From Lachnospiraceae bacterium (GTDB lineage Bacteria > Bacillota > Clostridia > Lachnospirales > Lachnospiraceae): 64,000 nt of DNA. A program made the position numbers and the translations under genes. The DNA lies in NCBI GenBank assembly GCA_900759665.1, contig CAAEWE010000058.1, positions 11,100 through 75,099 of the forward strand, read 5' to 3'. Positions 14,952 to 31,176 of the stretch are shown in pieces (positions within the stretch are counted from its first letter, which is position 1; each line of letters opens with the position of its first letter). Under the pieces are notes generated by a model. It saw nothing but the letters and a program-made list of their open reading frames with translations. It was not told the DNA's origin and did no database searches.

Positions 14952-16049
14952 TTACTGGATCCATTTGTATCGTAATTTGTACTCGTTGAGGTACTGATAA
15001 CCCAGATGCTTTTCTCTCTGTAGACGCCCGATCACGATATATGGCATGACGTTCTGTGACTCCGCAAATCTCCGGATCGCTTCTATACTATAATCTCCCG
15101 CATTCACAAATGCCTGATAATCATTACGGTTCATAAGCCTGTCGCCGGCAAACCGATCCGCCGCCTGCTCCTTCTTTCGATCCATTCCATCATCCACAAA
15201 GCTTGCATTCTTACCCAGATCTCCATTTACCAGATGTCCTAATTCATGAAATAGAGAAAACCAGAAAATATCTGCATATGATCCACGAAGTGTCAGTACT
15301 ATTTGATATGTCCCATCACTTTTCTGCGAAATATATCCTTGAACCGGTGCTCCCCGAAAATTGTGAAAAACAGCAAAATCAATTCCATAACCTGCCATAA
15401 CCTGTCTTAAATCTTTTTGGAAATTCGGATCACATTTTCGCATTATCCCTTTAATCTGATCAACTAACTCATCGATCCTTGACGCATCAAATTGCGACTC
15501 AACACTTCTACTATCTGCCATAATCTTGCACATCCTCATCCATGCACCCATAACATATGGATCAACTGCTTTATCTGCCATACGGAATGCCCCCGCTGGA
15601 GCAACCTCCTTCAGATTGGCTAAATTACTGATCTGCAAAGATTTTCTCAGGGATAATATAGAATCCTCCTTCTTTTCTCTCTGCGGAATCCTTCCCTTTT
15701 TCCGCAAATAACTGACAATCTCCTTCAATGATTCCCTTGCCTGCTTTTCCTCCTCTGTGATCGTCATTTCTGCATTATATTCCAGTAATTCAGCATCATA
15801 TCTCGCCTGTAAATTAAGCCAGAAAGACTTTGGTACCCCTAATGCATACTCTAATCCAAATGCAAAGTTGGCTGAGATGTCCTTTTTTCCTGCGATGACA
15901 TTGCTTACATATGCTGCCGAGACCCCCGCTCTCGCTGCCAGTTCCGCCTGTGTAATATTACGTTCTACCAAAATATCTGAAATCGTCTCTCCCGGATGTA
16001 TGATCAGATCACGGGATATACCAGTTTTCTTTACTGCCATGGTAATCAT
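14952..16049 (-). CDS. higA: antitoxin-like protein: HigA-type HTH fused to an ImmA/IrrE (M78) metallopeptidase domain
   Basis: N-terminal HigA signature (IHPGETISDILVERNITQAELAARAGVSAAYVSNVIAGKKDIS...FWLNLQARYD). C-terminal DUF955/M78 domain with HELGH (FHELGHLVNGD). Overlaps the upstream higB-like gene. Confidence 0.7.
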   Translation of the reverse strand: MITMAVKKTGISRDLIIHPGETISDILVERNITQAELAARAGVSAAYVSNVIAGKKDISANFAFGLEYALGVPKSFWLNLQARYDAELLEYNAEMTITEEEKQARESLKEIVSYLRKKGRIPQREKKEDSILSLRKSLQISNLANLKEVAPAGAFRMADKAVDPYVMGAWMRMCKIMADSRSVESQFDASRIDELVDQIKGIMRKCDPNFQKDLRQVMAGYGIDFAVFHNFRGAPVQGYISQKSDGTYQIVLTLRGSYADIFWFSLFHELGHLVNGDLGKNASFVDDGMDRKKEQAADRFAGDRLMNRNDYQAFVNAGDYSIEAIRRFAESQNVMPYIVIGRLQREKHLGYQYLNEYKLRYKWIQ

Positions 16050-16541: not shown

Positions 16542-17573
16542 CTATCTCCCATTTCTCGCACAACATGGGGATGCATACAGCTTTCCGTGGGTAAAATAAT
16601 TATAAGATCGGCACCCTGCAGCACATCGATCCGCATACCCACACTCCCTGCACGCCCCCTCTAATAGATCTGGCGTAAATTGACGGTTATAGGAAAATGC
16701 CCCCGGATCGTTCCATATATCATCCAGAGAACGGTCACGAAGATTTCCCTCTATAAAAGCTTCATCATACATGGATTCACATCCACGAACATTCCCCACA
16801 CTGTCAATCCCTATATTCGTGAGTCCCGCACCGCATCCCAGAAAAACTGCCCGTCCGCTGGTATTACCTCTTAATGTTCCCTCTGACTCTGTATAATAAC
16901 CAATATTGTCGGCTATCCCAATGGCAAAGTCAGAGCTTGCAATATGCTCCTCCACAAACCTGATCACACGCTGAAAGTCAATCTCCGTGGAAAAAATACC
17001 ACTGGAAGCATTTCCCATAGGAGAGCATGCCTGTAACTGCCATGCAAAAATCTTTTTGATCCGAAGCAGCTCATACATTTCCTCCAAATGACCGACATTC
17101 CTGCTGTGTAACGTACTGATCACCGATACCGGTATATCATTTTCAACTAATACCTCAAGTGCTTTCATTGCACATTTAAAGCTGCCCTTCTGCCGGAACA
17201 GGTCGTGAACTTCTTCGGGACCATCCAGGGAAATTGCAATAGATTCAATCCCTGTATCTTTTATCTTCGCCAAAGTCTCTTCCGTAAAAAGATATCCATT
17301 TGTAATTATGGATACATTCACATTTCGGTGGGTCAAAGCCTTTGCAATGACCGGCCAATCCTGACGCATAAACACCTCCCCGCCAATCATGGAAACCCTT
17401 TCACAGCCCAGTTCTGCCAACTGCTTCGCAACGTCCAGACACTCCTCTGTCGTTAATTCATTCTCACGGGCAGTCCCCGCCTTTGATCCACAATATTGAC
17501 ATGAAAAACAGCATGCCAGTGTAATCTCCCACACACAGGTACGTAACGGGTAATAATACTCCTCTTTATTCAT
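16542..17573 (-). CDS. radical SAM / SPASM-domain peptide-modifying enzyme (first of two)
   Basis: CxxxCxxC at ACCFSCQYC. C-terminal SPASM/twitch Cys clusters (GCGAGLTN...GCESMY...GACRECGYADRCAAGCRSY). Confidence 0.85.
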   Translation of the reverse strand: MNKEEYYYPLRTCVWEITLACCFSCQYCGSKAGTARENELTTEECLDVAKQLAELGCERVSMIGGEVFMRQDWPVIAKALTHRNVNVSIITNGYLFTEETLAKIKDTGIESIAISLDGPEEVHDLFRQKGSFKCAMKALEVLVENDIPVSVISTLHSRNVGHLEEMYELLRIKKIFAWQLQACSPMGNASSGIFSTEIDFQRVIRFVEEHIASSDFAIGIADNIGYYTESEGTLRGNTSGRAVFLGCGAGLTNIGIDSVGNVRGCESMYDEAFIEGNLRDRSLDDIWNDPGAFSYNRQFTPDLLEGACRECGYADRCAAGCRSYNYFTHGKLYASPCCARNGR

Positions 17574-18399: not shown

Positions 18400-19902
18400 C
18401 TACTTTCTAGTCCTCACCTTTTTCGTTGTACTCCATTTTCCTGTGACAATTTGATTATTGTTGGCACTGTTTCCATAAGCACATGCCCGAACGCAAATAT
18501 AATAGGTCTTTTTCTTCTTGAGATAAAGTGTTGCTTTCTTTCCCTCTTTCATTGCTACCCCTGCACCCTTAAAGTTCTTTTTGGTAGAGTACAAAATCGC
18601 ATAGAAATCAGCCCCTGCCACCTTCTTCCAGGTAACCTTCACTTTTCCGTGTTTCAATGGAGAAACTTTCTTGATCACCACTTTTCCCGGCTTTGACGGT
18701 ACTTTTTCATTGTCGATATCGACACGCTTCACAGACGATGGGGTTGCTGTCCGTGCCGCCGGTGCATTTGTCACCTGAGCTGCAGGTGTCCCGGTTGGCT
18801 GTGATTCCGTCTGTCCCGGTTTCGATGTCTCTGTTGCCGGCTGTTCCGGTTTTGATGTCTCTGTTGCCGGCTGTTCCGGTCTCGATGTAGATGTCGTATC
18901 CCCCATTGATACCTTTGTATCATCCGGAAGCTGGCTGCCAGAATTGTCCGGAGCCTTCGTCTGCGGAGGCAGTGTCACCTTGCATACCGGTGTCTCAGGA
19001 GCAGCCGGTTCCGGCGTAACCTCTGCCGGTGCCTGACCTGTAGTCGTAAAACTCCTCCTTGCATCCTTAAATTCCTGCCCCTCCACAACTGCATACAGTT
19101 CAAAATAATAGGTTGTTCCCGGAGTCAAAGTCATCTGCATATCATTATTCAGATTGCAGTTATAATTCACATAGCTTGTAGACAAACCACAATTTTCAGA
19201 ATAACTCTTAACCAGATTTCCATTTGCATTGTAAAGATAACATCCTACGGATGAGACCGTATGTTTATCCGGATTCATCACCTTAATATACATTTCCGCG
19301 TTTGTATCCCATACTCCATTTTGATTAAAGTCAGCAAATGTAATATTCGGAGTTGCCGGCTGTGCCGGTGTGTTGCCTGAATAAACCGGACGAATTGCAC
19401 AGGCTAATGCCGATATATTAAACCAGTTCTGAGTACAATAGGACTGATTATTAAAATTCTGATTCACCGCATTAAATCCCACGCTGTCTGCTGATGTAAT
19501 AATACCTACATGACCATACGCTGTCGTGCTGTAGGTACCGCAACTGTAATTCACCTTCCATACCGCAATATCTCCCGGCTGATAATCCCCGTACACTCTG
19601 ACCCATCCCGGCGGCAGTGCATTGGTGATATATGCATTAGCATTTCCTGTAGCATATCCTGCCACACCGAAATAATCATAATAATACTTGATCAGGTCTA
19701 CACACTGATTTCCATAAGCCCCATCGTAATCCAGCCCCTTGCCAATCTGAGCATTCGCCCATGCCACAGCTTCATCCCGCGTTGCGGCTTGCGCTGTCGC
19801 AGAATGACCTGCAAAGCTTCCGCAGATCACACTGGTAACCATAAGGGATACCGTCAAAATTACTGACAGAACCCGGCTTCCTGTTTTCTTTTTCATATGC
19901 AT
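18400..19902 (-). CDS. secreted CHAP-domain peptidoglycan hydrolase with a Thr/Pro-rich repeat linker and a basic C-terminal domain
   Basis: Signal peptide. CHAP Cys/His motifs (GNQCVDLIKYY ... YGHVGII). Three PEQPATETSK repeats. Lys-rich C-terminus. Confidence 0.75.
   Translation of the reverse strand: MHMKKKTGSRVLSVILTVSLMVTSVICGSFAGHSATAQAATRDEAVAWANAQIGKGLDYDGAYGNQCVDLIKYYYDYFGVAGYATGNANAYITNALPPGWVRVYGDYQPGDIAVWKVNYSCGTYSTTAYGHVGIITSADSVGFNAVNQNFNNQSYCTQNWFNISALACAIRPVYSGNTPAQPATPNITFADFNQNGVWDTNAEMYIKVMNPDKHTVSSVGCYLYNANGNLVKSYSENCGLSTSYVNYNCNLNNDMQMTLTPGTTYYFELYAVVEGQEFKDARRSFTTTGQAPAEVTPEPAAPETPVCKVTLPPQTKAPDNSGSQLPDDTKVSMGDTTSTSRPEQPATETSKPEQPATETSKPGQTESQPTGTPAAQVTNAPAARTATPSSVKRVDIDNEKVPSKPGKVVIKKVSPLKHGKVKVTWKKVAGADFYAILYSTKKNFKGAGVAMKEGKKATLYLKKKKTYYICVRACAYGNSANNNQIVTGKWSTTKKVRTRK
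18800..18890. repeat. 30-bp tandem repeat, 3 copies, encoding PEQPATETSK
   Basis: GTCTCTGTTGCCGGCTGTTCCGGTTTTGAT is repeated. Confidence 0.6.
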
Positions 19903-20254: not shown

Positions 20255-21211
20255 ATGGGATTAATAAATAATTTTATTTTCAACTCAATCAAACAAAAAG
20301 AAGACAATTTCACAAAAATAGTACGTGCTTATGATAATGGCGAAACCTGGGCACAAAAAGAATTTAATAATCTATTAAAAAATGGTGATCAAAATATCCT
20401 ATATCAAATTGACAGTATACGACAAAAAATCTATGCTAATGATGCAAAAAAAAATGATCCAAAAGCAATGTTTTATTATGGTATATCATCTCACGATTTC
20501 AATACATTTATGAGAATGTTAGTTCCATTGGCTGAACAAGGAAATGTAGATGCAATAATTGCCATAGCATCAGAATACTCACTTGGAACCATTACCTCAA
20601 GCAACGCCGAAGAAAGTTTTAAATGGTATTTAAAAGCTGCTCGCCTTGGAGATGTTTCCTCTCAAAATATCGTTGCATTGTCCTATACATGCAATGATGG
20701 ATGTGGCGAAATCAATTACGATAAAGCTTTTCATTGGTATTCTGCCTCCGCCAAACAAAACAATGCCAGTGGTTACTGTGGAATGGCAACCTGCTATGAA
20801 CATTGGCAAGATGAATTGGTCTTTCCACTACACGAAGCCACTTCCGTGCTGCACCAAAGGAATTATTCTGACATTAACGATGCCAGCCTTAAATATGACG
20901 AAAAGCGAATTGATTGTTATGAAACTGCACGGAACTTCATTTCAAACAATGATGAAGCTATCGAAACCTTCTACGGATTAGCAAAAAGCTATGCGTCAGC
21001 CAGCAAACATCTTTCTAATCAGAGCAATATACAAATGGCACAAAAATTGGCTATTTACTACTATTACGTAGCACACGACTGTGGTCACCCATATGGATTA
21101 AAATATGCAAAAGAGATTGCTGACAATAATAATATTTATGTCAATTTCTACAACATTGATGACTGGGCTGAAAAAGAAGGCATCATTACCTCTGAGCATG
21201 TAGAAAATTAG
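20255..21211 (+). CDS. Sel1-like repeat (SLR/TPR-like) protein, AT-rich
   Basis: Repeated A..WY.KAA..G motifs (KWYLKAARLGD, FHWYSASAKQNN). It is the only plus-strand gene in the accessory region and has an AT-rich upstream region. Confidence 0.65.
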   Translation: MGLINNFIFNSIKQKEDNFTKIVRAYDNGETWAQKEFNNLLKNGDQNILYQIDSIRQKIYANDAKKNDPKAMFYYGISSHDFNTFMRMLVPLAEQGNVDAIIAIASEYSLGTITSSNAEESFKWYLKAARLGDVSSQNIVALSYTCNDGCGEINYDKAFHWYSASAKQNNASGYCGMATCYEHWQDELVFPLHEATSVLHQRNYSDINDASLKYDEKRIDCYETARNFISNNDEAIETFYGLAKSYASASKHLSNQSNIQMAQKLAIYYYYVAHDCGHPYGLKYAKEIADNNNIYVNFYNIDDWAEKEGIITSEHVEN

Positions 21212-21216
21212 TAATC

Positions 21217-21257
21217 AAAAGGTCTGAACCACTCAACACGAGTGATTCAGACCTTTT
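21217..21257. terminator. bidirectional terminator between convergent genes
   Basis: AAAAGGTCTGAACCACTC-aacac-GAGTGATTCAGACCTTTTT: a 15-bp stem with an A-run on one side and a T-run on the other. Confidence 0.6.
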
Positions 21258-21281
21258 TACTTATTCCACCGACTATGTTAT

Positions 21282-21719
21282 TTAGCCTTCATTAAACGTT
21301 TCTTGAAATGCTTGTTGAAAAATATCATTCAAGACATCATAAAATGCATGCTCTTCCTTTTGATTTTTAGGTCCTAAAAGTGCTTTTCCAAGAATCCCCA
21401 TCTGCTGAGTTGATACTTCTCTTCTCCAGTTTTTACTGTCTCCAATCATATACTGTGTCAAATAACAACCATTTTCATTATTGTCAAATGCAAACGCATA
21501 TCCGTAATAATCCTTCATATGCATTGTATTATAGATTGTAATACATGGATACACCTTTCCAAGAAGTCCTTTTTTCTTACACTCATCTTTAGCAATCGTA
21601 AGGTTAATTCCATTCATCCTTGCCAATTCTGATATCTTCTGTGCAAACAAATCTAATGAAAAACCACTTCCACAAAATGCTGGATTACCACAAATTCTTT
21701 CATCTAATACTTTAATCAT
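21282..21719 (-). CDS. hypothetical protein (145 aa), last gene of the 11-gene operon
   Basis: Intact ORF with the same AT-rich composition and strand as the operon. No recognisable domain. Confidence 0.45.
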   Translation of the reverse strand: MIKVLDERICGNPAFCGSGFSLDLFAQKISELARMNGINLTIAKDECKKKGLLGKVYPCITIYNTMHMKDYYGYAFAFDNNENGCYLTQYMIGDSKNWRREVSTQQMGILGKALLGPKNQKEEHAFYDVLNDIFQQAFQETFNEG

Positions 21720-21791
21720 TTTTCTTTCGATGTATAAAACATCTGCTCCTTTCTACAAAATATGCTCACTTAAATTAAACAAGTAATTTAA

Positions 21792-21917
21792 TTAATGATC
21801 CTCTCCATATCTTGCTCTAACACAATGCCCACCTTCGCAAGATGAACGATCACTTGCCTCTGTATTAACTTTTACAGACACAACAACTTTTTTGATTTCT
21901 GGTTTTTGATAATTCAT
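21792..21917 (-). CDS. unannotated 41-aa peptide MNYQKPEIKKVVVSVKVNTEASDRSSCEGGHCVRARYGEDH, a candidate RiPP precursor
   Basis: ATG at 21917 lies 17 nt after the rSAM/SPASM stop (21935). AAAGGAGG RBS 9 nt upstream. TAA at 21792-21794. Too short for the track's 60-aa cutoff. Lys-rich N-terminus and a C-terminal C-x4-C-...-Y-G-E-D-H. Confidence 0.45.
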   Translation of the reverse strand: MNYQKPEIKKVVVSVKVNTEASDRSSCEGGHCVRARYGEDH

Positions 21918-21934
21918 AAAGTAATGCCTCCTTT

Positions 21935-23053
21935 CTACGGTTTTGCCAAATTTATCGCCTGTTCAAACGATATTTTATCCTCATAAAATGCCTTTCTTAT
22001 ATGAGCACTTTTACAAGCTTCTGAATCTCTATATTCCGGATTTCCATAAAGTAAATCCATTTCTGCCGGACAAATATCGCAATAATAGATCGACTCGCAT
22101 CCCTTACATTTATATTTATCCGATGCCACCAATTCCCCATATTTCCCAAACTCATCCCAAATCATGTCATAATTGCTTTTTTCCAGTTTTATTCCTCTGT
22201 GTCTTAATTTCATACACGGACACATATTGCCTTGGTAATCAATTACAAAACTATTCATTGCAACATTGCACGAATACACCTTTTCATTTTTTAACAACCA
22301 CTCTATAATCTGATCGTGATTAGATATCTTCTCTCGCGTTCCATTTGTTATCTGTGAGTAATAGTCCTCAAATTCATTCTTAAGCACAATATCCAAAGAA
22401 ATTCGATGGTTTCTTGGATCTTCATTTTTATCAATTGTTGGACAAATATCAAATGTATATACAAAAGGAATATCTAATCTTTCAGCAAGCTTTTTCATAT
22501 CAGTTAATTCTGGCAATGTGATATCAATAATCGGAGACTTCAATGAAATTCTCACACCTGCCTCCCTTATTTTAATACAATTTTCTATGACTCTTTCAAA
22601 CGCATTATGCACTCCTGTAACCTTGTAAAACGTCTCTTCATTTGCACCATATAACGAAATATCTACCAATAATGGAGGATATTTTTTTAATATCTCAATT
22701 AAATTATCAGTAAAAAAATATCCATTCGTAAACAGTTCTACTAGAAATCCTTTTTTCTTAGCATACAAATATATTTTATCAAAATCTTTTCTAGTTAATA
22801 TTTCTCCGCCCGTAAATGTTAAAAAAAGTATCCCTTTATCATATAAAATATCCATTATTTGCACTATTTGTTCATAGGTCATATCCTGTTCGCCATGAAA
22901 ATGCTGCAAATAACAATGTACACAATTAAAATTACATCTTGCAGTAATCTCAAATAAAACGGAGAATGGTTTTCTTTCCCTCATCCATTTTTCTCGCTTT
23001 TCTTCATTAAAATTTAAAATAGTCATATGTAACTTTTCATTAATTTCTTCCAT
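21935..23053 (-). CDS. radical SAM / SPASM-domain enzyme (second of two)
   Basis: CNFNCVHCY (CxxxCxxC) and C-terminal SPASM Cys clusters (CNVAMN...CPCMKL...CKGCESIYYCDICPAE). Start is 3 nt after the PqqD-like gene stop. Confidence 0.85.
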   Translation of the reverse strand: MEEINEKLHMTILNFNEEKREKWMRERKPFSVLFEITARCNFNCVHCYLQHFHGEQDMTYEQIVQIMDILYDKGILFLTFTGGEILTRKDFDKIYLYAKKKGFLVELFTNGYFFTDNLIEILKKYPPLLVDISLYGANEETFYKVTGVHNAFERVIENCIKIREAGVRISLKSPIIDITLPELTDMKKLAERLDIPFVYTFDICPTIDKNEDPRNHRISLDIVLKNEFEDYYSQITNGTREKISNHDQIIEWLLKNEKVYSCNVAMNSFVIDYQGNMCPCMKLRHRGIKLEKSNYDMIWDEFGKYGELVASDKYKCKGCESIYYCDICPAEMDLLYGNPEYRDSEACKSAHIRKAFYEDKISFEQAINLAKP

Positions 23054-23056
23054 CGA

Positions 23057-23338
23057 CTAGCATTCCTCCAAAAAACCTTCCTGTTTTAATGATTCAATAT
23101 AAACTTTAACATCTCTCAATAAGTCTTCTTCCGGAATTTTTTCCGAAATATTCTTCTTTAACGCTTCCACTAGTCCATATGCATTGATTGGTTTTGACAA
23201 CTGTTCCCAAAGGAATTCTCCTATTTCATTAAGTTGATATAAAAAACACTCATCATCAAAATAGTTTTGCGTTGCATCAATTAAAAATATCTCACCATGT
23301 ATATTTCTCTTTATAACATCTTTTCTTCTTGTAATCAT
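23057..23338 (-). CDS. PqqD-family peptide chaperone (RiPP recognition element)
   Basis: 93 aa: IHGEIFLIDATQNYFDDECFLYQLNEIGEFLWEQL...DVKVYIESLKQEGFL matches the PqqD/RRE pattern. Confidence 0.75.
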   Translation of the reverse strand: MITRRKDVIKRNIHGEIFLIDATQNYFDDECFLYQLNEIGEFLWEQLSKPINAYGLVEALKKNISEKIPEEDLLRDVKVYIESLKQEGFLEEC

Positions 23339-23396
23339 ATCGTATGTCTTCCCATTCCCTTTCGCTCAGCACAGCACCTACAATGCTCCACAAAAT

Positions 23397-23849
23397 TTAT
23401 ATATCATCCGCTTCTTCTGGAAGTTCAAACTCTTCTTTATTTAAATTTTCATTTGTCAAGGAAAAAAATTCTTCCTGTTTTCGACCTTCTTGATCTGTAA
23501 TCGTATATTTTCCTATTATTGCATGCGGACGCCAAGTATTTTCCTGATAATAGGGCTCAATTTCAACGTGTACATCATTACCATGCTCTAATTTATTAGC
23601 CCAAGTGTTTTCCAATGTTTTATATGCACTCCTGTTTATAAAACGATTCTGTGCAATCAAATTATCTAATTCGCCACTTCCACCAAACCGGCTTCCGATC
23701 AAATGTCCTCCATCGTCCGCATCGTGCCGAAATACACCTCCCGCTTTTAATTGAGCGGAAGCATTTCTTACTCCCCTTTCTAAATGTAAATCTCCCTCTG
23801 CCAAAACAATCCTGCCGTCATCATCTTTTTCATATGAATATCCATTCAT
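23397..23849 (-). CDS. mini DNA/RNA non-specific endonuclease of the DRGH / beta-beta-alpha-Me type (Endonuclease_NS-like)
   Basis: DDGGHLIGSRFGGSG...NLIAQNRFINRS...LENTWANKLE resembles the DRGH..N..PQ..N..W..E active-site region of Serratia/NucA-type nucleases. Only 150 aa. Confidence 0.5.
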   Translation of the reverse strand: MNGYSYEKDDDGRIVLAEGDLHLERGVRNASAQLKAGGVFRHDADDGGHLIGSRFGGSGELDNLIAQNRFINRSAYKTLENTWANKLEHGNDVHVEIEPYYQENTWRPHAIIGKYTITDQEGRKQEEFFSLTNENLNKEEFELPEEADDI

Positions 23850-23860
23850 TTCATAAGAAT

Positions 23861-24199
23861 TTACCTCATCTTTTTTTTTACATACTCATAAACCTCTGGT
23901 TCTTCATCTTCCCCAATCTCCTCCCACTCATCAAGCATCTGACTTAATTCATCAGAAATATCTTGTTCTTCATAATCTTCTCTGACATCAGATTCCATGT
24001 CCCCAACTTCTTCATATTCCTCTGAAATATCGACTTCATCATCGTAATATTCTGCAACTTCATCATAGTCAATATCACTTGAATCATACTCCACATCTGT
24101 AATATCAAGCATATCATCCAACACTGGAGTATCTACAACATCACTGCCGATATCATCCACATATTCCGTATCAAAACTCATATCATCCATTCTTCTCAT
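23861..24199 (-). CDS. highly acidic Asp/Glu/Tyr-rich protein (112 aa); possible nuclease inhibitor or DNA mimic
   Basis: Over 45% Asp plus Glu. Sits between the ATPase and nuclease genes. Overlaps the ATPase stop by 17 nt. Confidence 0.5.
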   Translation of the reverse strand: MRRMDDMSFDTEYVDDIGSDVVDTPVLDDMLDITDVEYDSSDIDYDEVAEYYDDEVDISEEYEEVGDMESDVREDYEEQDISDELSQMLDEWEEIGEDEEPEVYEYVKKKMR

Positions 24200-26855
24200 C
24201 CCCTTTCCTCTCTTTTGTAAACAAGGTAATCAATTTAATCTTTTCTTTATCATCCATTTTGTATAATCTGTCATTCAACTGAAGTTTTCGAAACAATTTA
24301 ATTCTTACACAAATAACAAATCCTCGATCATCTCTGTACCCCATCGCTGCCATCTTTTTTCCGAAAAGTAACGGAATACTTAAAAAAACACCTCTAATTG
24401 TTCTTTTTCTATCTGCATTCTTATATAATGCATCAACACAAACCGCATAGGCCTCACTGGAAATATATTCTGCATCCGCCTTTATTCTAAAATTACAACC
24501 TTTACCATATAATCCGCACAAATAACACTCTTTATATGGACACAATAACTTTTGTTTATCATCCCAGTAATGCATGAATTTTCTAATCAGATCATTGTCT
24601 ATACTTAATTTAATTTGCTTCTTTTCTCTTATATCCTCCGTCATCACAAGCTGCGGTTTACTAAATGCTGTAGAATAAACATATGCTTCACCAACTTGCA
24701 AACAAGAAAGATTTTCTTCCATTTCTGCATCCATATTGGTACTGTCCGCAATCAGTCTCCGTTCTGATGCCTCCACAAGCCGAAACACAATTTTGGTATC
24801 AGAAGCAGCAATGATATCATGAGTCACTTTTGACGGTGATTGATCCGCAATAATAACACCCGTTCCATACGCCCTGATTTCTTTAAGCATCCTTTGTAAT
24901 GATCTCACTGTTGATGATCCTGCAGAAATATCTGAATTATCTCCTCTCTCTTCTGGTGATAACAGAACATGTGCCTCATCAATCATCAAAACATTCTTGA
25001 GGTTGGTTCCTATACTTGAACTATTTATCTTGGTATATGCACAAACATCAACCAACAATAATGCCATGATCAATGCTTTTTGCTCCATGTTTTCTATGGA
25101 ATTTAGTTCTATGATTGTCGGTCTTGAAATTAAATCTTCAATAGGTATGGTATTGATCGAATCATAAATATTGCTATTCATGTCAATTAAATTCATCAAT
25201 CTCATAACACCTGCTGTTTCCAAATTTGATTTTACATCCTTGCTATAATTTGATGTTTGGAGCAATTTCTTAAATACTATAATAAATTCATGTAAACCAA
25301 ATATAGTAACATCCTTGTCATCAGATGTACTATAATTTTTCCATCCGTATTTCGTATAGCATTGTTGTATAGCGTTTTGGAATAATAAATCTAATGGTGA
25401 TGGCATAGAAAAAGCAGCCATAAATGCACTTACCAAAACAGGTTTATATTGCTCCACCGTAATTCCTTTTAATGGAATAAACGGATTAATGATAAATGGG
25501 GAAACACTAACATTTCCCGGTGTAAAAATTTGTATATCCGGCAATTGTTCTATCAAAGCTCTATACTCTGTCTTAGTCGGTTCGACTATCAAAAACGGAA
25601 TGTTTCTTTCAGCAAGTTGCAACATCAAATTGATAGAAAAGGTTGTTTTGCCGGTTCCTGGCATTCCCACAATCAATACATGCTTTGACAGTATTCTTTG
25701 GTCACATCCAATAGTAACTTTTTTCATATCTGATGATATTAATTGCCCAAACTTTATATTAGAATCACTAATAACCTCTTCTTTTAACTGCTCTCTTTGC
25801 TTTTTATATCTGTTTTCCTCAATGCCAGACATATTTCCATCATAAACCGGCAAACGAAAAAAAGAACTTATCTCTTCAATCGTCATCATCAAGGGAAGTC
25901 GGTACAAATAATTAGAGAGCGGAATATATTTACGAATTTTCATATTTCTATATTTGTGCATTAATAATGCACTCACATTCCATATATAATTAGGAAATTC
26001 ATCGATTATATTGCCGACACTTTTTGATATATCAATACAATTTCCCTCAAAACTACCAATATTACTGTCTCCACCTTTTAAAAGACCAATAATTTTAGCA
26101 GATAAAATAGCACAATCTTCTCTTGTTCCAAAAACCAATAAATTTGACAAAAACATAGGAGCATCCCGATTATCTTTATAATAAGATAATACTTCAAACG
26201 GTTCCTGAGCACATGTATCTTTTAAAAGCTGTCCATTAACAGGTATTCCTTTTGATAATCCTTCCAGTTCAGAACAATGTTGTATTAATATTGTAATTTC
26301 ATTATCATACAATTTTGTTGGTAATATACTAAACGAAATACCACAATTCTCCATCTGACTCAAGGCATTAATCAGAGACGCCAACCCCTCAGTATTATCT
26401 GATGGAATAATCTCTGTATAATAAAATGGACAAACACTAGACGGATTAATAACTACTTTTTCCTTTTTCTCCACAGCATACACCATACTTTTAACATCCT
26501 GTCTCCAAAGGTAATCAAAAGTTTGATGGCAATGTTCTGAGTCCTGACAAGAATATCCAAAATCCGATACTACATTTTGAATGTTATTTATAAGCATTTT
26601 AACGCTTGATACTGCTCCTGTACTTACATTGTCTATCTTTCGCACAACAATATAAATATGTATTTTCGAGGTATATGATTGATTATCAACTTTCTCAGTC
26701 AACCAAATAATTTCATAAGCAACATTCTGATTATCAAGTCTATACAACTCTCCTAAAACATTTTCAAAATCTGAAATTGTGTCTGAGAAAGTAACAATTT
26801 CCAGCATATCAACTGCCAAAAAACGATTGTCTGCTAATTCATACACCTGTACCAT
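24183..26855 (-). CDS. HerA/FtsK-superfamily P-loop ATPase (890 aa) with an unknown ~390-aa N-terminal domain and a C-terminal Cys cluster
   Basis: Walker A VGMPGTGKTT followed by LIVEPTKTEYRAL (HerA-like). Walker B LMIDEAHVLL. FtsK/HerA-type motif VIIADQSPSKV...KIVFRLV. C-terminal CPYKECYLCGLYGKGC. Confidence 0.65.
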   Translation of the reverse strand: MVQVYELADNRFLAVDMLEIVTFSDTISDFENVLGELYRLDNQNVAYEIIWLTEKVDNQSYTSKIHIYIVVRKIDNVSTGAVSSVKMLINNIQNVVSDFGYSCQDSEHCHQTFDYLWRQDVKSMVYAVEKKEKVVINPSSVCPFYYTEIIPSDNTEGLASLINALSQMENCGISFSILPTKLYDNEITILIQHCSELEGLSKGIPVNGQLLKDTCAQEPFEVLSYYKDNRDAPMFLSNLLVFGTREDCAILSAKIIGLLKGGDSNIGSFEGNCIDISKSVGNIIDEFPNYIWNVSALLMHKYRNMKIRKYIPLSNYLYRLPLMMTIEEISSFFRLPVYDGNMSGIEENRYKKQREQLKEEVISDSNIKFGQLISSDMKKVTIGCDQRILSKHVLIVGMPGTGKTTFSINLMLQLAERNIPFLIVEPTKTEYRALIEQLPDIQIFTPGNVSVSPFIINPFIPLKGITVEQYKPVLVSAFMAAFSMPSPLDLLFQNAIQQCYTKYGWKNYSTSDDKDVTIFGLHEFIIVFKKLLQTSNYSKDVKSNLETAGVMRLMNLIDMNSNIYDSINTIPIEDLISRPTIIELNSIENMEQKALIMALLLVDVCAYTKINSSSIGTNLKNVLMIDEAHVLLSPEERGDNSDISAGSSTVRSLQRMLKEIRAYGTGVIIADQSPSKVTHDIIAASDTKIVFRLVEASERRLIADSTNMDAEMEENLSCLQVGEAYVYSTAFSKPQLVMTEDIREKKQIKLSIDNDLIRKFMHYWDDKQKLLCPYKECYLCGLYGKGCNFRIKADAEYISSEAYAVCVDALYKNADRKRTIRGVFLSIPLLFGKKMAAMGYRDDRGFVICVRIKLFRKLQLNDRLYKMDDKEKIKLITLFTKERKGDEKNG

Positions 26856-26861
26856 ACTTTA

Positions 26862-28562
26862 TTAACCTCTCAATCCCTGTATATAATCATCTAATTCGCT
26901 TATTTTATTTACGCATGTTTCATACGTTTCTTTTTGTTTTTCCAAATCAGCAATAAAAGACTCAAGCACCTGTTTTCTTAGAGCAATACCATCATAATTT
27001 TTTTGCTCTTTTTGCAGCATTGGTTTTTTAATAAGTGTCTCAATACTCATAACGACAGCACGATAAATCCCCCATATAATAAGGATTGCTACGCTTGAAA
27101 ACACGCCATCCATTATGCTTTCTGTAACGCAGATATACAATGCCCAAACTATGCATACTATAATTGATAGTCTGAAATCATGAGGTTTCGATAATTTCTT
27201 TATTTTTGGTTTCAGCTCGTTCAGTTGCAACTGCAACATTCTAGTTTCTTCCCTTTTCTGACTTATCTCTGGCGATACATCCCTATATCCTGCATTTTGA
27301 TTTTGATAATAATTCCTCTCATCTTCCGCTTTTCTTATTGCCAGTCTCTTATCCTGCTCTTGTATTCTTCTTGTATATTCTCCCCACTCCTCCTGTATTG
27401 TTTTCGCCTTGTCTGGATTTGCAACCATGATTGCATGTTGTACCATATTTTCCATCTCAGAAGCCAATTTATTATCCAAATGAGTTAAACATTCACTTTG
27501 TACATAAGGTACCCCCCACCATCCACGATAATCTTCCGGATACCTATTTTGCATTTCAACATATAATTCATATGCTTTTTGAGTTTCATTCAGTCTCAAA
27601 AATGTTTCCGCATTGGCTGCTAAGCGGTTCACCTCAGATGTTTCTTCCTTTTGGAGATTCACAGTCTTTGTTTTGCTGTTCTGGATGACATTATTAACGC
27701 CCTCTACCAGATATTCCACATATCCTATTTTGTTCAAATCAAAAGATTGAAATGCAGAAAATTCCATTGGCATTTCATATGGAGATATATTTTTAAAGCA
27801 TGCAATCAGTGTTTTATCCTTATTTTCTTTCTTTAATTCCAAAAAACGAGACCATTCATTCTTCACCCAGGTAGAATTATAATATTCCGTTTTAGTTCCC
27901 AGAACAATCATTACCGTTGCACTCATCAATGCAGCATATATATACGGTTCATACTCTTGTCCAAGCTTACTCTCTAACGATTTTTTGGCAAAAAATGTGC
28001 GGTATCCTGCCTGCTCTAACGAGTTATAAATATTATATGCTATCATGCTGTCTTCCGTTGGCTCTCCATTTTCCATCTTATCTTTATAACAGATAAAGAC
28101 ATCATACGGCTTCTCTTCTTTTACAATTTTAATATATTTATTATAAATCTCGTCAATTTTGGTTGCTTCTTCTTGAAAAACATAAGATTCGTATATATCT
28201 GCATTTTGCAACGCTGCTTTATAATCCGGATCATCAAAAATAGAATGATCCTGTATTCTATGACATGTTGGTTTCCTTTCTCCGCTAATATCATTTACAT
28301 ACTCAATACCATATCGGCTTAAAACCATTCCCCAATGAGCCGCTGAATCTTTATGATCTTCTCGAAGCAAATCATCAAAAACAGATATTGCACCATCAAA
28401 ATCCAGATTTTGTCTTAAAAACGTAGCACGATTAAATAAATTTTCTATTTTGTCCTTATTTTTGGATACAATCATTTTCGAATCACAATACTTGCATGTT
28501 GCTATTGAAGTACTTTCATCAAAATCGATATTCGCTCCACACACCTCACACTTTAATATCAT
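26862..28562 (-). CDS. zinc-ribbon / TIR-domain protein with a C-terminal coiled coil and two TM helices
   Basis: N-terminal CEVCG...CKYCDS. TIR signature YDVFICYKD...EDSMIAYNIYNSLEQAGYRTFF...IYAALMSATVMIVLGTKTEYYNSTWVKNEW. Hydrophobic helices IIVCIVWALYICV and VAILIIWGIYRAVVM. Confidence 0.75.
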   Translation of the reverse strand: MILKCEVCGANIDFDESTSIATCKYCDSKMIVSKNKDKIENLFNRATFLRQNLDFDGAISVFDDLLREDHKDSAAHWGMVLSRYGIEYVNDISGERKPTCHRIQDHSIFDDPDYKAALQNADIYESYVFQEEATKIDEIYNKYIKIVKEEKPYDVFICYKDKMENGEPTEDSMIAYNIYNSLEQAGYRTFFAKKSLESKLGQEYEPYIYAALMSATVMIVLGTKTEYYNSTWVKNEWSRFLELKKENKDKTLIACFKNISPYEMPMEFSAFQSFDLNKIGYVEYLVEGVNNVIQNSKTKTVNLQKEETSEVNRLAANAETFLRLNETQKAYELYVEMQNRYPEDYRGWWGVPYVQSECLTHLDNKLASEMENMVQHAIMVANPDKAKTIQEEWGEYTRRIQEQDKRLAIRKAEDERNYYQNQNAGYRDVSPEISQKREETRMLQLQLNELKPKIKKLSKPHDFRLSIIVCIVWALYICVTESIMDGVFSSVAILIIWGIYRAVVMSIETLIKKPMLQKEQKNYDGIALRKQVLESFIADLEKQKETYETCVNKISELDDYIQGLRG

Positions 28563-28577
28563 CAGTACCTCCCATTA

Positions 28578-29831
28578 TTATAAATCCTTTAATTTTTCTC
28601 GTTCGATTTTGAACTCCTCATCAGTGTATAACCCTTCCTGCCAAGCCATTTTCAAACGTTTTAACCGTTTCATATACTCTTCATCATCAATATGATGCTT
28701 TTCATTGCATGAATTTTCTACTGATGTTTTCAAATGAACCATTCCCGGTATATCATCACCATCCTCGTTGCCGTTGCTAGGGGTTACATTTATATTTGCA
28801 CTATCATTGTCTGTAATCGGTGTCATTAGACTACTTCCTTGAATTTCATTTCCAAAACTACTCATTGTCTGACTAATAAACGGTGCCATCCCCATTCCCA
28901 TTCCAACTCCCATCATGGGTGCACTACTTCTTCCAATGCCTTCATTAGCTGCCGCAATATCCATCACCCCAAATCCTCTTCGCTGATGTTCCGTCATATT
29001 AAGAGTTTTATTAGCAATACTTTGAGCGATTGCATCGCGTTTTTTTATTTCCTCATCTGCTATATGCTCCGTAATTCTGACATTTGCATTGATTGCAGCT
29101 TCTTTTATCCGATTTTTTTCTTCCATATCCAAGAAAGTATTTTGGGACCATAAATGTTTATACATTTGATAATTAGGATCATCATCAGATGCATTGATAT
29201 TATTCACGTATAGATCCACCAATGCTATTCCGTATTCAAACATATAACTGGAAATTGCCTTTTTAAGCTGTTCTGCAATTCCCATTGGATTACTCTCAAG
29301 ATTAAAAATCGAAGTATTTTCTTCTCTTAAAATTGCCGGAAGCCATTGTTTGATGCATGAAATGATGATTCCTTTAAAATATCTCATCATATGTTCCTGA
29401 TCGAATTGCGTCTCCGTTCCAACCAACTTCAATAATATTTTTTTGGAATCCACCACTTTAATACTCATTTCACCGGACGTGCTAATAGCAAATGGCGGCA
29501 AGTTCAGACTTGGATCACTGTATTTTACACCTCCAACTCCCCAATTAATTGCCATTTGTTCCGTCTTATTTACAAAATAAACTTGACAGTGAAATGGCGA
29601 GACCCCATCACTTGGCAAATTGATAAGTTTGTTCAAAATAGGTATATTTTTAGTCTGTAATTTATATGATCCTGGTTGAAATATATCCGTCAACTGACCA
29701 TCTTTAAAAAAAGCTGCTTCTTGTGTTTCATGCACAATTAAGGTCGAATGAGTATTAAAATCTTCTCCCGGAAACTTCCATACGAATGTTCTATTATTTA
29801 TTTCACCTTTTATTACGTCAAATATTAGCAT
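28578..29831 (-). CDS. SPFH/Band-7-like protein of the YdjI (COG4260, 'virion core protein-like') family with a C-terminal SHOCT domain
   Basis: FDVIKGE...FVWKFPGEDF...LIVHETQEAAFFKDGQ...CQVYFVNKTEQMAINWGV follows the YdjI pattern. C-terminal EEYMKRLKRLKMAWQEGLYTDEEFKIEREKL is SHOCT-like. Confidence 0.6.
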   Translation of the reverse strand: MLIFDVIKGEINNRTFVWKFPGEDFNTHSTLIVHETQEAAFFKDGQLTDIFQPGSYKLQTKNIPILNKLINLPSDGVSPFHCQVYFVNKTEQMAINWGVGGVKYSDPSLNLPPFAISTSGEMSIKVVDSKKILLKLVGTETQFDQEHMMRYFKGIIISCIKQWLPAILREENTSIFNLESNPMGIAEQLKKAISSYMFEYGIALVDLYVNNINASDDDPNYQMYKHLWSQNTFLDMEEKNRIKEAAINANVRITEHIADEEIKKRDAIAQSIANKTLNMTEHQRRGFGVMDIAAANEGIGRSSAPMMGVGMGMGMAPFISQTMSSFGNEIQGSSLMTPITDNDSANINVTPSNGNEDGDDIPGMVHLKTSVENSCNEKHHIDDEEYMKRLKRLKMAWQEGLYTDEEFKIEREKLKDL

Positions 29832-29850
29832 ATGTTCATCCTCTTAGATA

Positions 29851-30432
29851 TTATTCAGCCTCAACAGTTAATCCCTCAATTCTTGTTCCATTCATATCAT
29901 GATTCTCCGTCATAAATGTTGTAATTCTCCCCGAATCTGCTGTCGACTCAATAAACACTTTTCCTGCTGCTCCATTAAAATCATTAGCAGTCTCCGATTT
30001 AAAACTTAACGATGCAATGAAATCATCCATTGATGTATATCCTGTAAGTTGCAAAAATGTTTCAACGACCTCTCTTGAATAATAAGAATCTACAATATCA
30101 CCTAAATCGGATAACTCCACAGTTGTGCTCTTAGTTATTGCGCCACTCTGAGCCAGAGAAGAAACAATATCTGTTGTTATGCTGCTTAATATCTGTTGAT
30201 CTTTACTCATACTACTTAATTCATCATACTCTTCATTGTCTCCATAAAGGTCATTATCAATATCACTGATTATTTGTTGATTTGCGGCGTTTTGTTCTGA
30301 TCCACCAGTTTGATTCGATCTACGAGATGTAATGATTCCTGTCGTTACAATTGCAATGCACACTAAAACTGCTGCTCCTAAAATAGCAAGTACAATAATT
30401 TTGGTATTATTTTTCTCTTTCATGTTTTCCAT
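29851..30432 (-). CDS. N-terminally membrane-anchored hypothetical protein (193 aa), first gene of the operon
   Basis: A single TM helix (IIVLAILGAAVLVCIAIVTTGII) followed by a Ser/Thr/Asp-rich domain. 19-nt gap to the next gene. Confidence 0.5.
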   Translation of the reverse strand: MENMKEKNNTKIIVLAILGAAVLVCIAIVTTGIITSRRSNQTGGSEQNAANQQIISDIDNDLYGDNEEYDELSSMSKDQQILSSITTDIVSSLAQSGAITKSTTVELSDLGDIVDSYYSREVVETFLQLTGYTSMDDFIASLSFKSETANDFNGAAGKVFIESTADSGRITTFMTENHDMNGTRIEGLTVEAE

Positions 30433-30925
30433 TTCCTTTCTATCTATTCTTTGTACATTTATACCTCAACTCTTATTCTATCATCCTGCTGTCTTTATTT
30501 TCTTTCCGTTTTTTTCATTATTTAACTATTTTTCTTCTTTTTATATTTCTTATTCTTGTAGAATATAATTTAACAAAACACGTTTAAACCCTGTATTTTT
30601 CAGCATTTAGCAGTGATTTATAATTTTTTTCGTCGCATTATTATACAATTTTTTTAAATTTCAAAAAAAATTGCACAAATTTTCTTATCATATTTTGTCA
30701 ATACTGCCTATTGGATGTTTCCTCACTACTCCCTTACTTCGTCTTTCTTTGTTTATCACGTTAAACCACTTCATTTTATAAACCATTCCTACTAACTGCC
30801 AAACTTCACATATCTTATTGAGTATTTTCCCCATCTCTATAACACAGAATATATCAGTCGTTTGATATATTTATTCTTCTTTCCTATCGTTCTCCCATTT
30901 CTTTCCTTTTTCATTCACGCAAACA

Positions 30926-30970
30926 AAAACTGCCACATATCAACTTCACTCGCTGATATGTGACAGTTTT
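30926..30970. terminator. rho-independent terminator at the GC-normal / AT-rich boundary
   Basis: AAAAACTGCCACATATCA-acttcactcgc-TGATATGTGACAGTTTTT. Terminates the minus-strand gltS / small-gene transcript. Confidence 0.55.
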
Positions 30971-30978
30971 TCACAACA

Positions 30979-31176
30979 TCACTTCTTCCGTATATGCACC
31001 TCCGGAATCGCCACGCTGTCATAGACCACTCCGGGTTTGTGATCTGCTTCCTTCTCCTGCTTCCCCTCTTTGTCCGCCTCCCCTGTCTCATGGGTATGGA
31101 TCTCCGGAATCGCCAGATTTTCATAAGTCAGATCATAATTTTTCTTCCCATCGGTATTTTTCTTTTTTCCAAACAT
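30979..31176 (-). CDS. small 65-aa charged protein with an internally duplicated AIPE(I/V)H motif
   Basis: GGAGGAATGAGAAA-ATG RBS. LAIPEIHTHETGEADKEGKQEKEADHKPGVVYDSVAIPEVHIRKK. DNA repeat CTCCGGAATCGCCA at 31001 and 31103. Confidence 0.5.
   Translation of the reverse strand: MFGKKKNTDGKKNYDLTYENLAIPEIHTHETGEADKEGKQEKEADHKPGVVYDSVAIPEVHIRKK

Follow-up and report, generated by a model that had tools for sequence, protein, structure and literature searches.

A conserved gene pair for a YdjI-type SPFH protein and a predicted membrane-anchored TIR protein in gut Clostridia

SPFH proteins form large membrane-associated oligomers that organise client proteins, and published structures of HflK/C-FtsH, stomatin/NfeD and the flotillins show such oligomers enclosing membrane clients. 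One of the closest described systems to the locus considered here is YdjGHI of B. subtilis, in which soluble YdjI is recruited to the membrane by YdjG/H (PMC8581546). YdjI consists of a band-7 domain and a C-terminal ribbon (PMC11237479, PMC8581546) and lacks a transmembrane (TM) segment (PMC8581546). In YdjG, a pair of Zn-ribbons is combined with an NTF2-like (YpeB-related) domain and one TM segment (PMC11237479); a primer table gives the YdjG N-terminus as MIISYKCPNC (PMC8581546). Loss of SamI/YdjI leaves SamG-SamH constitutively signalling (bioRxiv 10.64898/2026.02.06.704340). A second point of reference is SIR2-HerA, which sets a precedent for the gating of a NADase by a HerA-type ATPase (PMC11514289). 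Here we describe a locus within a 64,000-nt stretch of DNA from a Lachnospiraceae bacterium (the window) in which a 417-aa SPFH protein of the YdjI type is encoded next to a 566-aa TIR protein headed by a Zn-ribbon. A first-pass annotation had proposed that this pair, preceded by a 193-aa protein, is a YdjGHI-like scaffold holding a TIR effector at the membrane. All three open reading frames (ORFs) are present, on the minus strand, as is the whole row of genes analysed below. Coordinates are positions in the window.

To place the pair in context, we annotated 79 metagenome loci anchored on the TIR protein, using hidden Markov models (HMMs) built for this analysis. An SPFH gene is present in 61 of the 79, and all 18 loci that lack one are truncated contigs. 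Wherever at least 4 kb of sequence is available on both sides, the SPFH gene lies within three genes of the TIR gene (16/16 loci), on the same strand in 14 cases. These linked SPFH proteins form 24 clusters at 90% identity. SPFH and Zn-ribbon-TIR are a strongly conserved, near-obligate gene pair, as a scaffold-client relationship would predict. Other genes of the neighbourhood are less constant: F2, a 4-TM protein of ∼230 aa, occurs in 48/79 of the TIR-anchored loci and the ATPase described below in only 9/79. Clustered at 90%, the database holds more than 4,175 relatives of the TIR protein with the same layout (ribbon, TPR, TIR, TPR, hydrophobic segment). The window locus is a variant of a membrane module that is widespread in gut Clostridia and apparently undescribed. 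The first-pass annotation knew of no description of the arrangement, and we found it neither in PADLOC nor in the literature searched; it is, however, no one-off. Full-text searches, outside subscription journals and supplementary tables, returned no relevant paper that connects SPFH proteins with either TIR domains or anti-phage defence.

The TIR domain of the 566-aa protein is well supported. Residues 155–277 match Pfam TIR_2 (E 8e-14; 52.6 bits, cut-off 28), and Pfam also reports a TPR match. An AlphaFold2 model built with 48 homologues as input (mean predicted local distance difference test score, pLDDT, 86.6) shows a beta ribbon (1–33), TPR-like helices, an alpha/beta domain (153–290), further TPR-like helices, a long coiled coil, a hairpin and a terminal coiled-coil helix of 60 residues, in that order. 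The four cysteines of the ribbon, C5, C8, C23 and C26 (CxxC...CxxC), are conserved in 116/116 homologues covering these columns (118 aligned, two of them gapped). The motif W232-x-x-N235-E236-W237-x-R239, locally W232-V-K-N-E-W in the window, is invariant in 118/118 homologues. In an hhalign comparison E236 falls on the catalytic E642 of SARM1, a placement to be read as approximate. The W-x-x-x-E spacing is known from SARM1 and from plant TIRs, and TIR domains with this Glu cleave NAD+ upon oligomerisation. The 566-aa protein has both the TIR fold and a catalytic-position Glu in helix alpha-C. The invariance of this Glu and of the active-site motif argues for enzymatic activity, and we predict that the domain is of the NAD+-cleaving type. 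PADLOC matches of the protein are weak only (Aga_TIR and PDC-S66).

The stretch at residues ∼463–507 is hydrophobic, with model helices at 464–480 and 483–565, and hydrophobic segments occur at the equivalent place in 115/120 homologues. On the model, this hairpin is predicted to cross the membrane and serve as the anchor, leaving both termini and all soluble parts of the protein in the cytoplasm. The helical repeats, coiled coil and two TM helices read from the sequence at first pass have counterparts in the model.

In related loci the TIR genes frequently stand in tandem, two to five paralogues in a row, and their products diverge at the C-terminus. The window protein is a short form that has a TM hairpin and lacks both an ectodomain and an F2 partner. 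Paralogues of at least 740 aa usually have one strong TM helix followed by 200–1100 residues with DUF6273, RCC1 or TPR, which implies a variable extracellular part and a cytoplasmic TIR domain. Examples of long Zn-ribbon-TIR paralogues predicted to be single-pass with DUF6273 or RCC1 outside are L112:10001-13153, L090:10001-13192, L132:2173-4941 and L115:9815-14746. DUF6273 is a reported target of a diversity-generating retroelement in Faecalibacterium prophages (PMC11792537). We scanned all long paralogues for A-biased template/variable repeats and found only internal tandem repeats of ∼114 nt and similarity between paralogues, and diversification of the ectodomains by this route was discarded.

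The partner is SPFH-like, as first annotated. Residues 17–215 of the 417-aa protein match Pfam Band_7_1 (E 2e-37), the family to which YdjI itself presumably belongs, and hydropathy reveals no hydrophobic segment. There are 3,561 homologues at 90% clustering; the best 120 of these carry C-terminal SHOCT or double Zn-ribbons, and YdjI itself is not among these 120. Double Zn-ribbons at the C-terminus are also found on longer SPFH relatives in the related loci, as in YdjI. The window protein had been said to end in a SHOCT domain. Its tail scores 11.7 bits against SHOCT (PF09851; cut-off 27). Column for column, however, it aligns with homologues that pass the cut-off, among them a 40% identical one in locus L004, whose tail reaches 36.5 bits there. 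'SHOCT-like' is a fair description, and a full SHOCT domain slightly too strong a claim.

With the TIR fold, the catalytic Glu and an SPFH neighbour all present, the observation behind the first-pass annotation stands. Its central idea is largely vindicated, with NADase activity and physical scaffolding as predictions from sequence.

Assignment of the locus to the YdjGHI family does not hold. We compared the locus with published domain descriptions of YdjG, YdjH and YdjI. The likeness lies in a TM-less Band_7_1 SPFH protein beside a membrane protein headed by a Zn-ribbon. Like YdjI, the window SPFH protein has no TM segment of its own, but it ends in the SHOCT-like tail rather than in a Zn-ribbon; sister proteins do carry double Zn-ribbons. 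The 566-aa protein has a single ribbon, a TPR-TIR-TPR-coiled-coil body and a TM hairpin, without the second ribbon or NTF2-like domain of YdjG, so that the two proteins have in common only an N-terminal ribbon and a C-terminal membrane anchor. No match to the TPM domain of YdjH was found in the 193-aa protein or in F2 of related loci, and no PspA_IM30 match (Pfam) among the operon proteins. The window locus also adds an ATPase, an acidic protein and a nuclease. Because four of the five YdjGHI features tested failed, we regard the locus as no member of that family and the resemblance as architectural only. The 193-aa protein does have a single N-terminal TM segment (residues 12–30), in line with its first description as membrane-anchored. 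It belongs to no Pfam or PADLOC family, and its phmmer homologues are confined to the window and locus L005; it is lineage-specific and probably no core component.

A further difference from the first-pass annotation, which had the SPFH/TIR pair right, concerns the extent of the operon. Downstream of the TIR gene lie genes for an 890-aa ATPase and a 112-aa acidic protein, both conserved in related loci, and for a 150-aa nuclease, all of which had been missed. The ATPase has an N-terminal domain of ∼350 aa, a P-loop core and a C-terminal Cys cluster, and its Walker A (GMPGTGKT at 397) and Walker B (MIDEAH) motifs are intact and invariant. It matches DUF87 (Pfam; E 2.6e-11) and touches the PADLOC models mad8/HerA/DndH. 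Against the NCBIfam CedD/HerA models it falls far under the cut-offs, and against the two HerA_antiphage models it scores 53.4 and 41.4 bits (cut-offs 800 and 850). A Foldseek search with the model (pLDDT 72) gave TrwK/VirB4 of R388 as the best full-length match (E 1e-16; TM-score 0.33), followed by archaeal HerA (1e-14), the C-domain of DndH and the HerA chains of SIR2-HerA and DUF4297-HerA.

In a second sample, anchored on the ATPase (76 loci; ∼68 species with a related system), Clostridia predominate among the hosts, and a few are Coriobacteriia, Bifidobacterium, Bacteroidales, Treponema and Chloroflexi. The conserved order is SPFH, F2 (optional), Zn-ribbon protein, ATPase, acidic protein, and an SPFH gene is present in 42/49 loci with at least 5 kb upstream. 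The Zn-ribbon slot is occupied by a TIR protein in ∼40% of these loci. Elsewhere it holds F4 (a 664-aa helical-repeat protein without TIR), Zn-ribbon-LRR_5, Zn-ribbon-TPR or Zn-ribbon-TIR-ankyrin proteins. An HMM of the first 40 residues of the TIR family also matches the N-termini of 24 F4 proteins (of a 28-member family) and of the Zn-ribbon-LRR_5 family. The same ribbon thus heads different slot proteins, which suggests a common and presumably docking module. No PADLOC or NCBIfam model names the SPFH, F2, F4, paired F5, acidic or 193-aa proteins.

The 112-aa protein (42% Asp+Glu) is a short form of a family with acidic leaders. An acidic protein follows the ATPase in 39/57 loci. The proteins have a common M-x-D-E-F-D-type start; short forms measure 92–181 aa, and long forms differ in their C-termini, for instance an HExxH metallopeptidase or a recurrent DWPPDYGDV-type end, and have small conserved genes downstream. 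In loci L027 and L030, the Zn-ribbon slot upstream of the ATPase holds proteins (f51) that combine a colicin-DNase/WHH domain with a long, acidic tail at the C-terminus. Among the acidic-leader proteins of related loci, the polymorphic-toxin pattern of a constant N-terminus and variable C-termini is seen; the window encodes its acidic part and its nuclease by two genes. The nuclease is a stand-alone Endonuclea_NS_2 domain (PF13930; E 1e-29), kept together with the acidic protein only in the eight loci closest to the window, and is a candidate effector or toxin of this sub-variant. No immunity gene for it was identified among the operon proteins.

Two further ATPase-bearing clusters came to light. 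Several Oscillospiraceae loci (L033, L034, L037, L044, L057 and others, e.g. L034:15407-18776) have a version with extra conserved genes: paralogous proteins of ∼580 and 533 aa with a C-terminal TM segment, a ∼60-aa protein and an AAA+ ATPase (PADLOC IetA-like, E 6e-32), together with acidic-leader HExxH metallopeptidases and then small genes, making an uncharacterised cluster of at least 10 genes. The Bacillaceae loci L073–L080 from the ATPase scan were excluded as a different, dynamin-linked system. Their ∼1,040-aa distant relatives of the ATPase (∼30% identity across the P-loop domain) belong to another conserved cluster, together with a pair of dynamin-like GTPases and two unknown proteins, in what appears to be a separate uncharacterised system.

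Successive gaps across the first six genes of the window row, from the 193-aa gene to the nuclease gene, are 19, 15, 6, –17 and 11 nt (Table 1). The functional unit reaches ∼23397 and takes in the ATPase, acidic protein and nuclease, with the 193-aa gene peripheral. A promoter-like TTGAAA-16-AATAAT lies upstream of the operon, at 30664-30637; the promoter/terminator scan was otherwise uninformative, and no regulatory RNA of known type was found in the operon and its leader.

Table 1. Positions of the operon genes and of mapped protein features in the window
Feature	Position	Strand	Basis or remark
193-aa protein	29851..30432	-	ORF; one N-terminal TM helix; first gene of operon
417-aa SPFH protein, YdjI type	28578..29831	-	Pfam PF13421 (Band_7_1), residues 17-215
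SHOCT-like bihelical C-terminal tail of the SPFH protein, DDEEYMKRLKRLKMAWQEGLYTDEEFKIEREKLKDL	28581..28688	-	Alignment with SHOCT-positive homologues
566-aa TIR protein, predicted membrane-anchored	26862..28562	-	ORF, Pfam, hydropathy, homologue alignment, AlphaFold2 model
N-terminal Zn-ribbon of the 566-aa protein (C5, C8, C23, C26)	28464..28562	-	Homologue alignment
TIR domain, residues 153-290 of the 566-aa protein	27693..28106	-	Glu236 codon 27855-27857
Hydrophobic helical hairpin, residues 463-507 of the 566-aa protein	27042..27176	-	Hydropathy, model helices
890-aa VirB4/HerA-clade P-loop ATPase	24183..26855	-	DUF87, Foldseek; starts 6 nt after TIR gene
112-aa acidic protein	23861..24199	-	ORF; start overlaps ATPase stop by 17 nt
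150-aa Endonuclea_NS_2 nuclease	23397..23849	-	Pfam PF13930; 11 nt downstream of acidic gene

How does this gene set compare with other known systems? With SIR2-HerA (Nezha) and DUF4297-HerA it has in common the gene for a HerA-clade ATPase of hexameric type, with intact Walker motifs, directly beside the gene for an effector of NAD+-consuming type, and the HerA chains of those systems match structurally. Here, however, the effector is a TIR protein and membrane-anchored, the ATPase is an 890-aa protein with extra N- and C-terminal domains, SPFH and acidic partners are added, and most TIR-SPFH modules lack the ATPase. The window ATPase does not belong to the HerA_antiphage family, its similarity being at the level of fold. 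Likewise, although TrwK/VirB4 is its best full-length fold match, sequence similarity to VirB4 is confined to the P-loop domain, and no channel or coupling components of type IV secretion systems (VirB3/6/8/10, VirD4) are found by Pfam among the operon proteins.

TIR defence effectors (Thoeris ThsB, TIR-SAVED, TIR-STING, SPARTA, SpbK, AbTir) have the same fold and catalytic-position Glu, and activation by oligomerisation is their expected mode. The window protein differs in being predicted integral to the membrane and in having no ThsA, SAVED, STING or Argonaute partner; no operon protein gave a PADLOC match for Thoeris. We know of no TIR defence system that is paired with an SPFH protein or headed by a Zn-ribbon. 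The likeness to the SPFH cages of HflK/C-FtsH, stomatin/NfeD and flotillins is one of concept, with an SPFH oligomer to organise or sequester an enzyme that is anchored in the membrane. The SPFH proteins of those cages carry membrane anchors themselves and come from different subfamilies, and the client here would be the TIR protein.

Oligomerising TIR domains, SPFH oligomers and the YdjI precedent together suggest a model in which the SPFH protein restrains the TIR protein. We tentatively favour a role in defence or conflict for a membrane-tethered TIR NADase that the SPFH protein organises, a reading that we put at somewhat under an even chance and in which docking, NADase activity, trigger and defence role are all what we infer. 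The core of the module is a YdjI-family SPFH protein plus at least one membrane-anchored protein headed by the conserved Zn-ribbon. The soluble SPFH protein would oligomerise at the inner side of the membrane, dock the TIR protein by its Zn-ribbon end and hold the TIR domains separate and inactive until a membrane-proximal trigger (e.g. phage entry or envelope damage) releases or clusters them. Upon assembly the TIR domains would cleave NAD+, leading to growth arrest or abortive infection. In the window, the VirB4/HerA-like ATPase, its polyacidic partner and the small nuclease would form an add-on sensing or effector arm. This arm could mirror HerA of SIR2-HerA in sensing DNA and gating the NADase, with the polyacidic protein as a DNA-mimic plug; alternatively, the ATPase arm could serve in the export of acidic-leader toxins.

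Several features argue for conflict or defence over housekeeping: the arrays of paralogues with divergent, sensor-like C-termini, the placement of the window operon in a low-GC island (20255-30900; ∼33.6% GC versus 44–48% in the flanks), the patchy taxonomy and the occasional presence of defence neighbours. In scattered related loci these neighbours include DISARM, type I restriction-modification, AbiEi and STAND genes as well as integrases.

A number of observations weigh against this reading. None of the operon components has a meaningful match to a PADLOC family, and F2 is absent from the window though present in most related loci. The neighbours in the window are transporters, RiPP-type radical-SAM genes (RiPP, ribosomally synthesised and post-translationally modified peptide) and a CHAP protein. 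DISARM is adjacent in 22 loci, yet DrmB is >95% identical among them, so that they collapse to a single lineage; the defence-island evidence is consequently thin, and we down-weighted DISARM adjacency. The high abundance and frequent multi-copy occurrence of the family in gut Clostridia could equally fit a physiological membrane function. The polymorphic acidic-leader proteins look more like secretion substrates than like parts of a defence system.

Carriage of the family on mobile replicons was also considered and discarded: tblastn found no match in phage or plasmid collections, and only 4 of 2.9 M IMG/VR contigs were positive. In some loci, genes for an Hsp70-like ATPase that itself ends in a SHOCT tail, or for DnaJ-C-terminal/CXXCXGXG-like proteins, are inserted among the SPFH, TIR and ATPase genes (L003:8036-9283, L004:11826-12482, L004:15584-16141), which hints at chaperone-type regulation.

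The module could instead monitor envelope stress or membrane homeostasis, as SamGHI/YdjGHI does. The SPFH and Zn-ribbon membrane proteins would sense the state of the membrane or cell wall, the long paralogues through their variable extracellular C-terminal domains, and the TIR domain would be a signalling element, making a nucleotide messenger or providing a platform for oligomerisation, rather than a suicidal NADase. The SPFH family and the logic of a soluble SPFH protein working with a Zn-ribbon TM protein are as in YdjGHI (PMC8581546; PMC11237479; bioRxiv 10.64898/2026.02.06.704340). The Hsp70- and DnaJ-C-like insertions speak for this explanation too, as do the many single-pass paralogues with 200–1100 aa predicted outside (DUF6273, RCC1, TPR) and the abundance of the family, which is chromosomal and hardly found in phages and plasmids. 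We nonetheless judge it unlikely. By Pfam, the window has no PspA, TPM protein, linked transcription factor or two-component system, and a signal made by the TIR domain would have neither a reader nor an effector linked to it. The strictly conserved catalytic-type Glu and active-site motif argue for enzymatic activity, and a low-GC island and patchy distribution would be unusual for a housekeeping stress system.

Also improbable, in our estimation, is that the ATPase-bearing variant is a toxin-delivery or secretion apparatus for interbacterial antagonism, with the ATPase translocating polyacidic-leader proteins that end in polymorphic toxin domains and the SPFH, 4-TM and Zn-ribbon proteins forming or regulating a membrane platform. 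TrwK/VirB4, the best full-length fold match of the ATPase (E 1e-16), is itself the ATPase of a type IV secretion system, but with a TM-score of no more than 0.33, and HerA-clade defence ATPases give nearly as good a match. The acidic protein usually comes next after the ATPase, with the M-x-D-E-F-D-type start and translational coupling, and the small conserved genes after the long forms, whose C-terminal domains vary, could encode immunity proteins. Endonuclea_NS_2, present in the window, is a common domain in polymorphic toxins; the lack of an identified immunity gene for the window nuclease, however, counts on the other side. Pfam detects no channel, coupling protein, pilin or WXG-like substrate among the operon proteins, and the TIR domain is on the cytoplasmic side by predicted topology. 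Since the ATPase occurs in so few of the TIR-anchored loci (9/79), toxin export cannot explain the core SPFH-TIR pair.

Quite unlikely, to our minds, is a two-part membrane immune apparatus of a new kind. Its first part would be transmembrane TIR receptors, with Zn-ribbon, TPR and TIR in the cytoplasm and, in many paralogues, a single TM helix leading to a large variable ectodomain (DUF6273, RCC1); encoded in diversifying tandem arrays, they would be docked by their Zn-ribbons on a cytoplasmic SPFH cage for outside-in sensing in the manner of Toll-like receptors. In the variant of the window, this platform would be coupled to the VirB4/HerA-like motor, which would engage polyacidic, DNA-mimicking leaders of polymorphic toxins. 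Finally, that the SPFH and TIR genes are functionally unrelated and merely adjacent in a low-GC island is effectively refuted by the conserved synteny (within three genes in 16/16 well-flanked loci, across the 24 SPFH clusters) and by window gaps of 19, 15 and 6 nt from the 193-aa gene through the ATPase, even if the 193-aa neighbour is indeed not conserved.

Beyond the nuclease gene, the row continues with genes for a PqqD-like protein and a radical-SAM/SPASM enzyme and then with two ORFs, of 41 and 145 aa. The first three of these (21792-23338, minus strand, directly downstream of the nuclease) encode proteins of 93 and 372 aa and the peptide MNYQKPEIKKVVVSVKVNTEASDRSSCEGGHCVRARYGEDH, and look like a RiPP maturase set with its precursor peptide. 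Another radical-SAM/SPASM gene lies at 16542-17573 (–). Beside the low-GC island are genes for an HTH_3 + Peptidase_M78 (ImmA/IrrE-type) regulator (14952-16049, –) and a 500-aa CHAP-domain protein (18400-19902, –), which may be mobile-element remnants marking the island's other edge. At its lower edge, on the opposite strand, is a gene for a 318-aa Sel1-repeat protein (20255-21211, +). Between the glutamate symporter gene and the operon promoter there is a 65-aa ORF (30979-31176, –) with the internal repeat AIPEIHTHE / AIPEVHIRK, followed by a hairpin and T-run at ∼30920-30965.

The module is very common in human-gut Clostridia, often with several copies per locus. If the SPFH-restrained TIR NADase proposed here is correct, NAD+-cleaving TIR enzymes would be a class of SPFH (flotillin-like) client not described before, and bacterial TIR immunity would include a membrane-integral branch. 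The locus offers a concrete system for the effect of Band_7_1/YdjI-type SPFH proteins on Zn-ribbon partners, and it bears on how the membrane may gate TIR oligomerisation. It also points to an uncharacterised family of VirB4/HerA-like ATPases with polyacidic partners.

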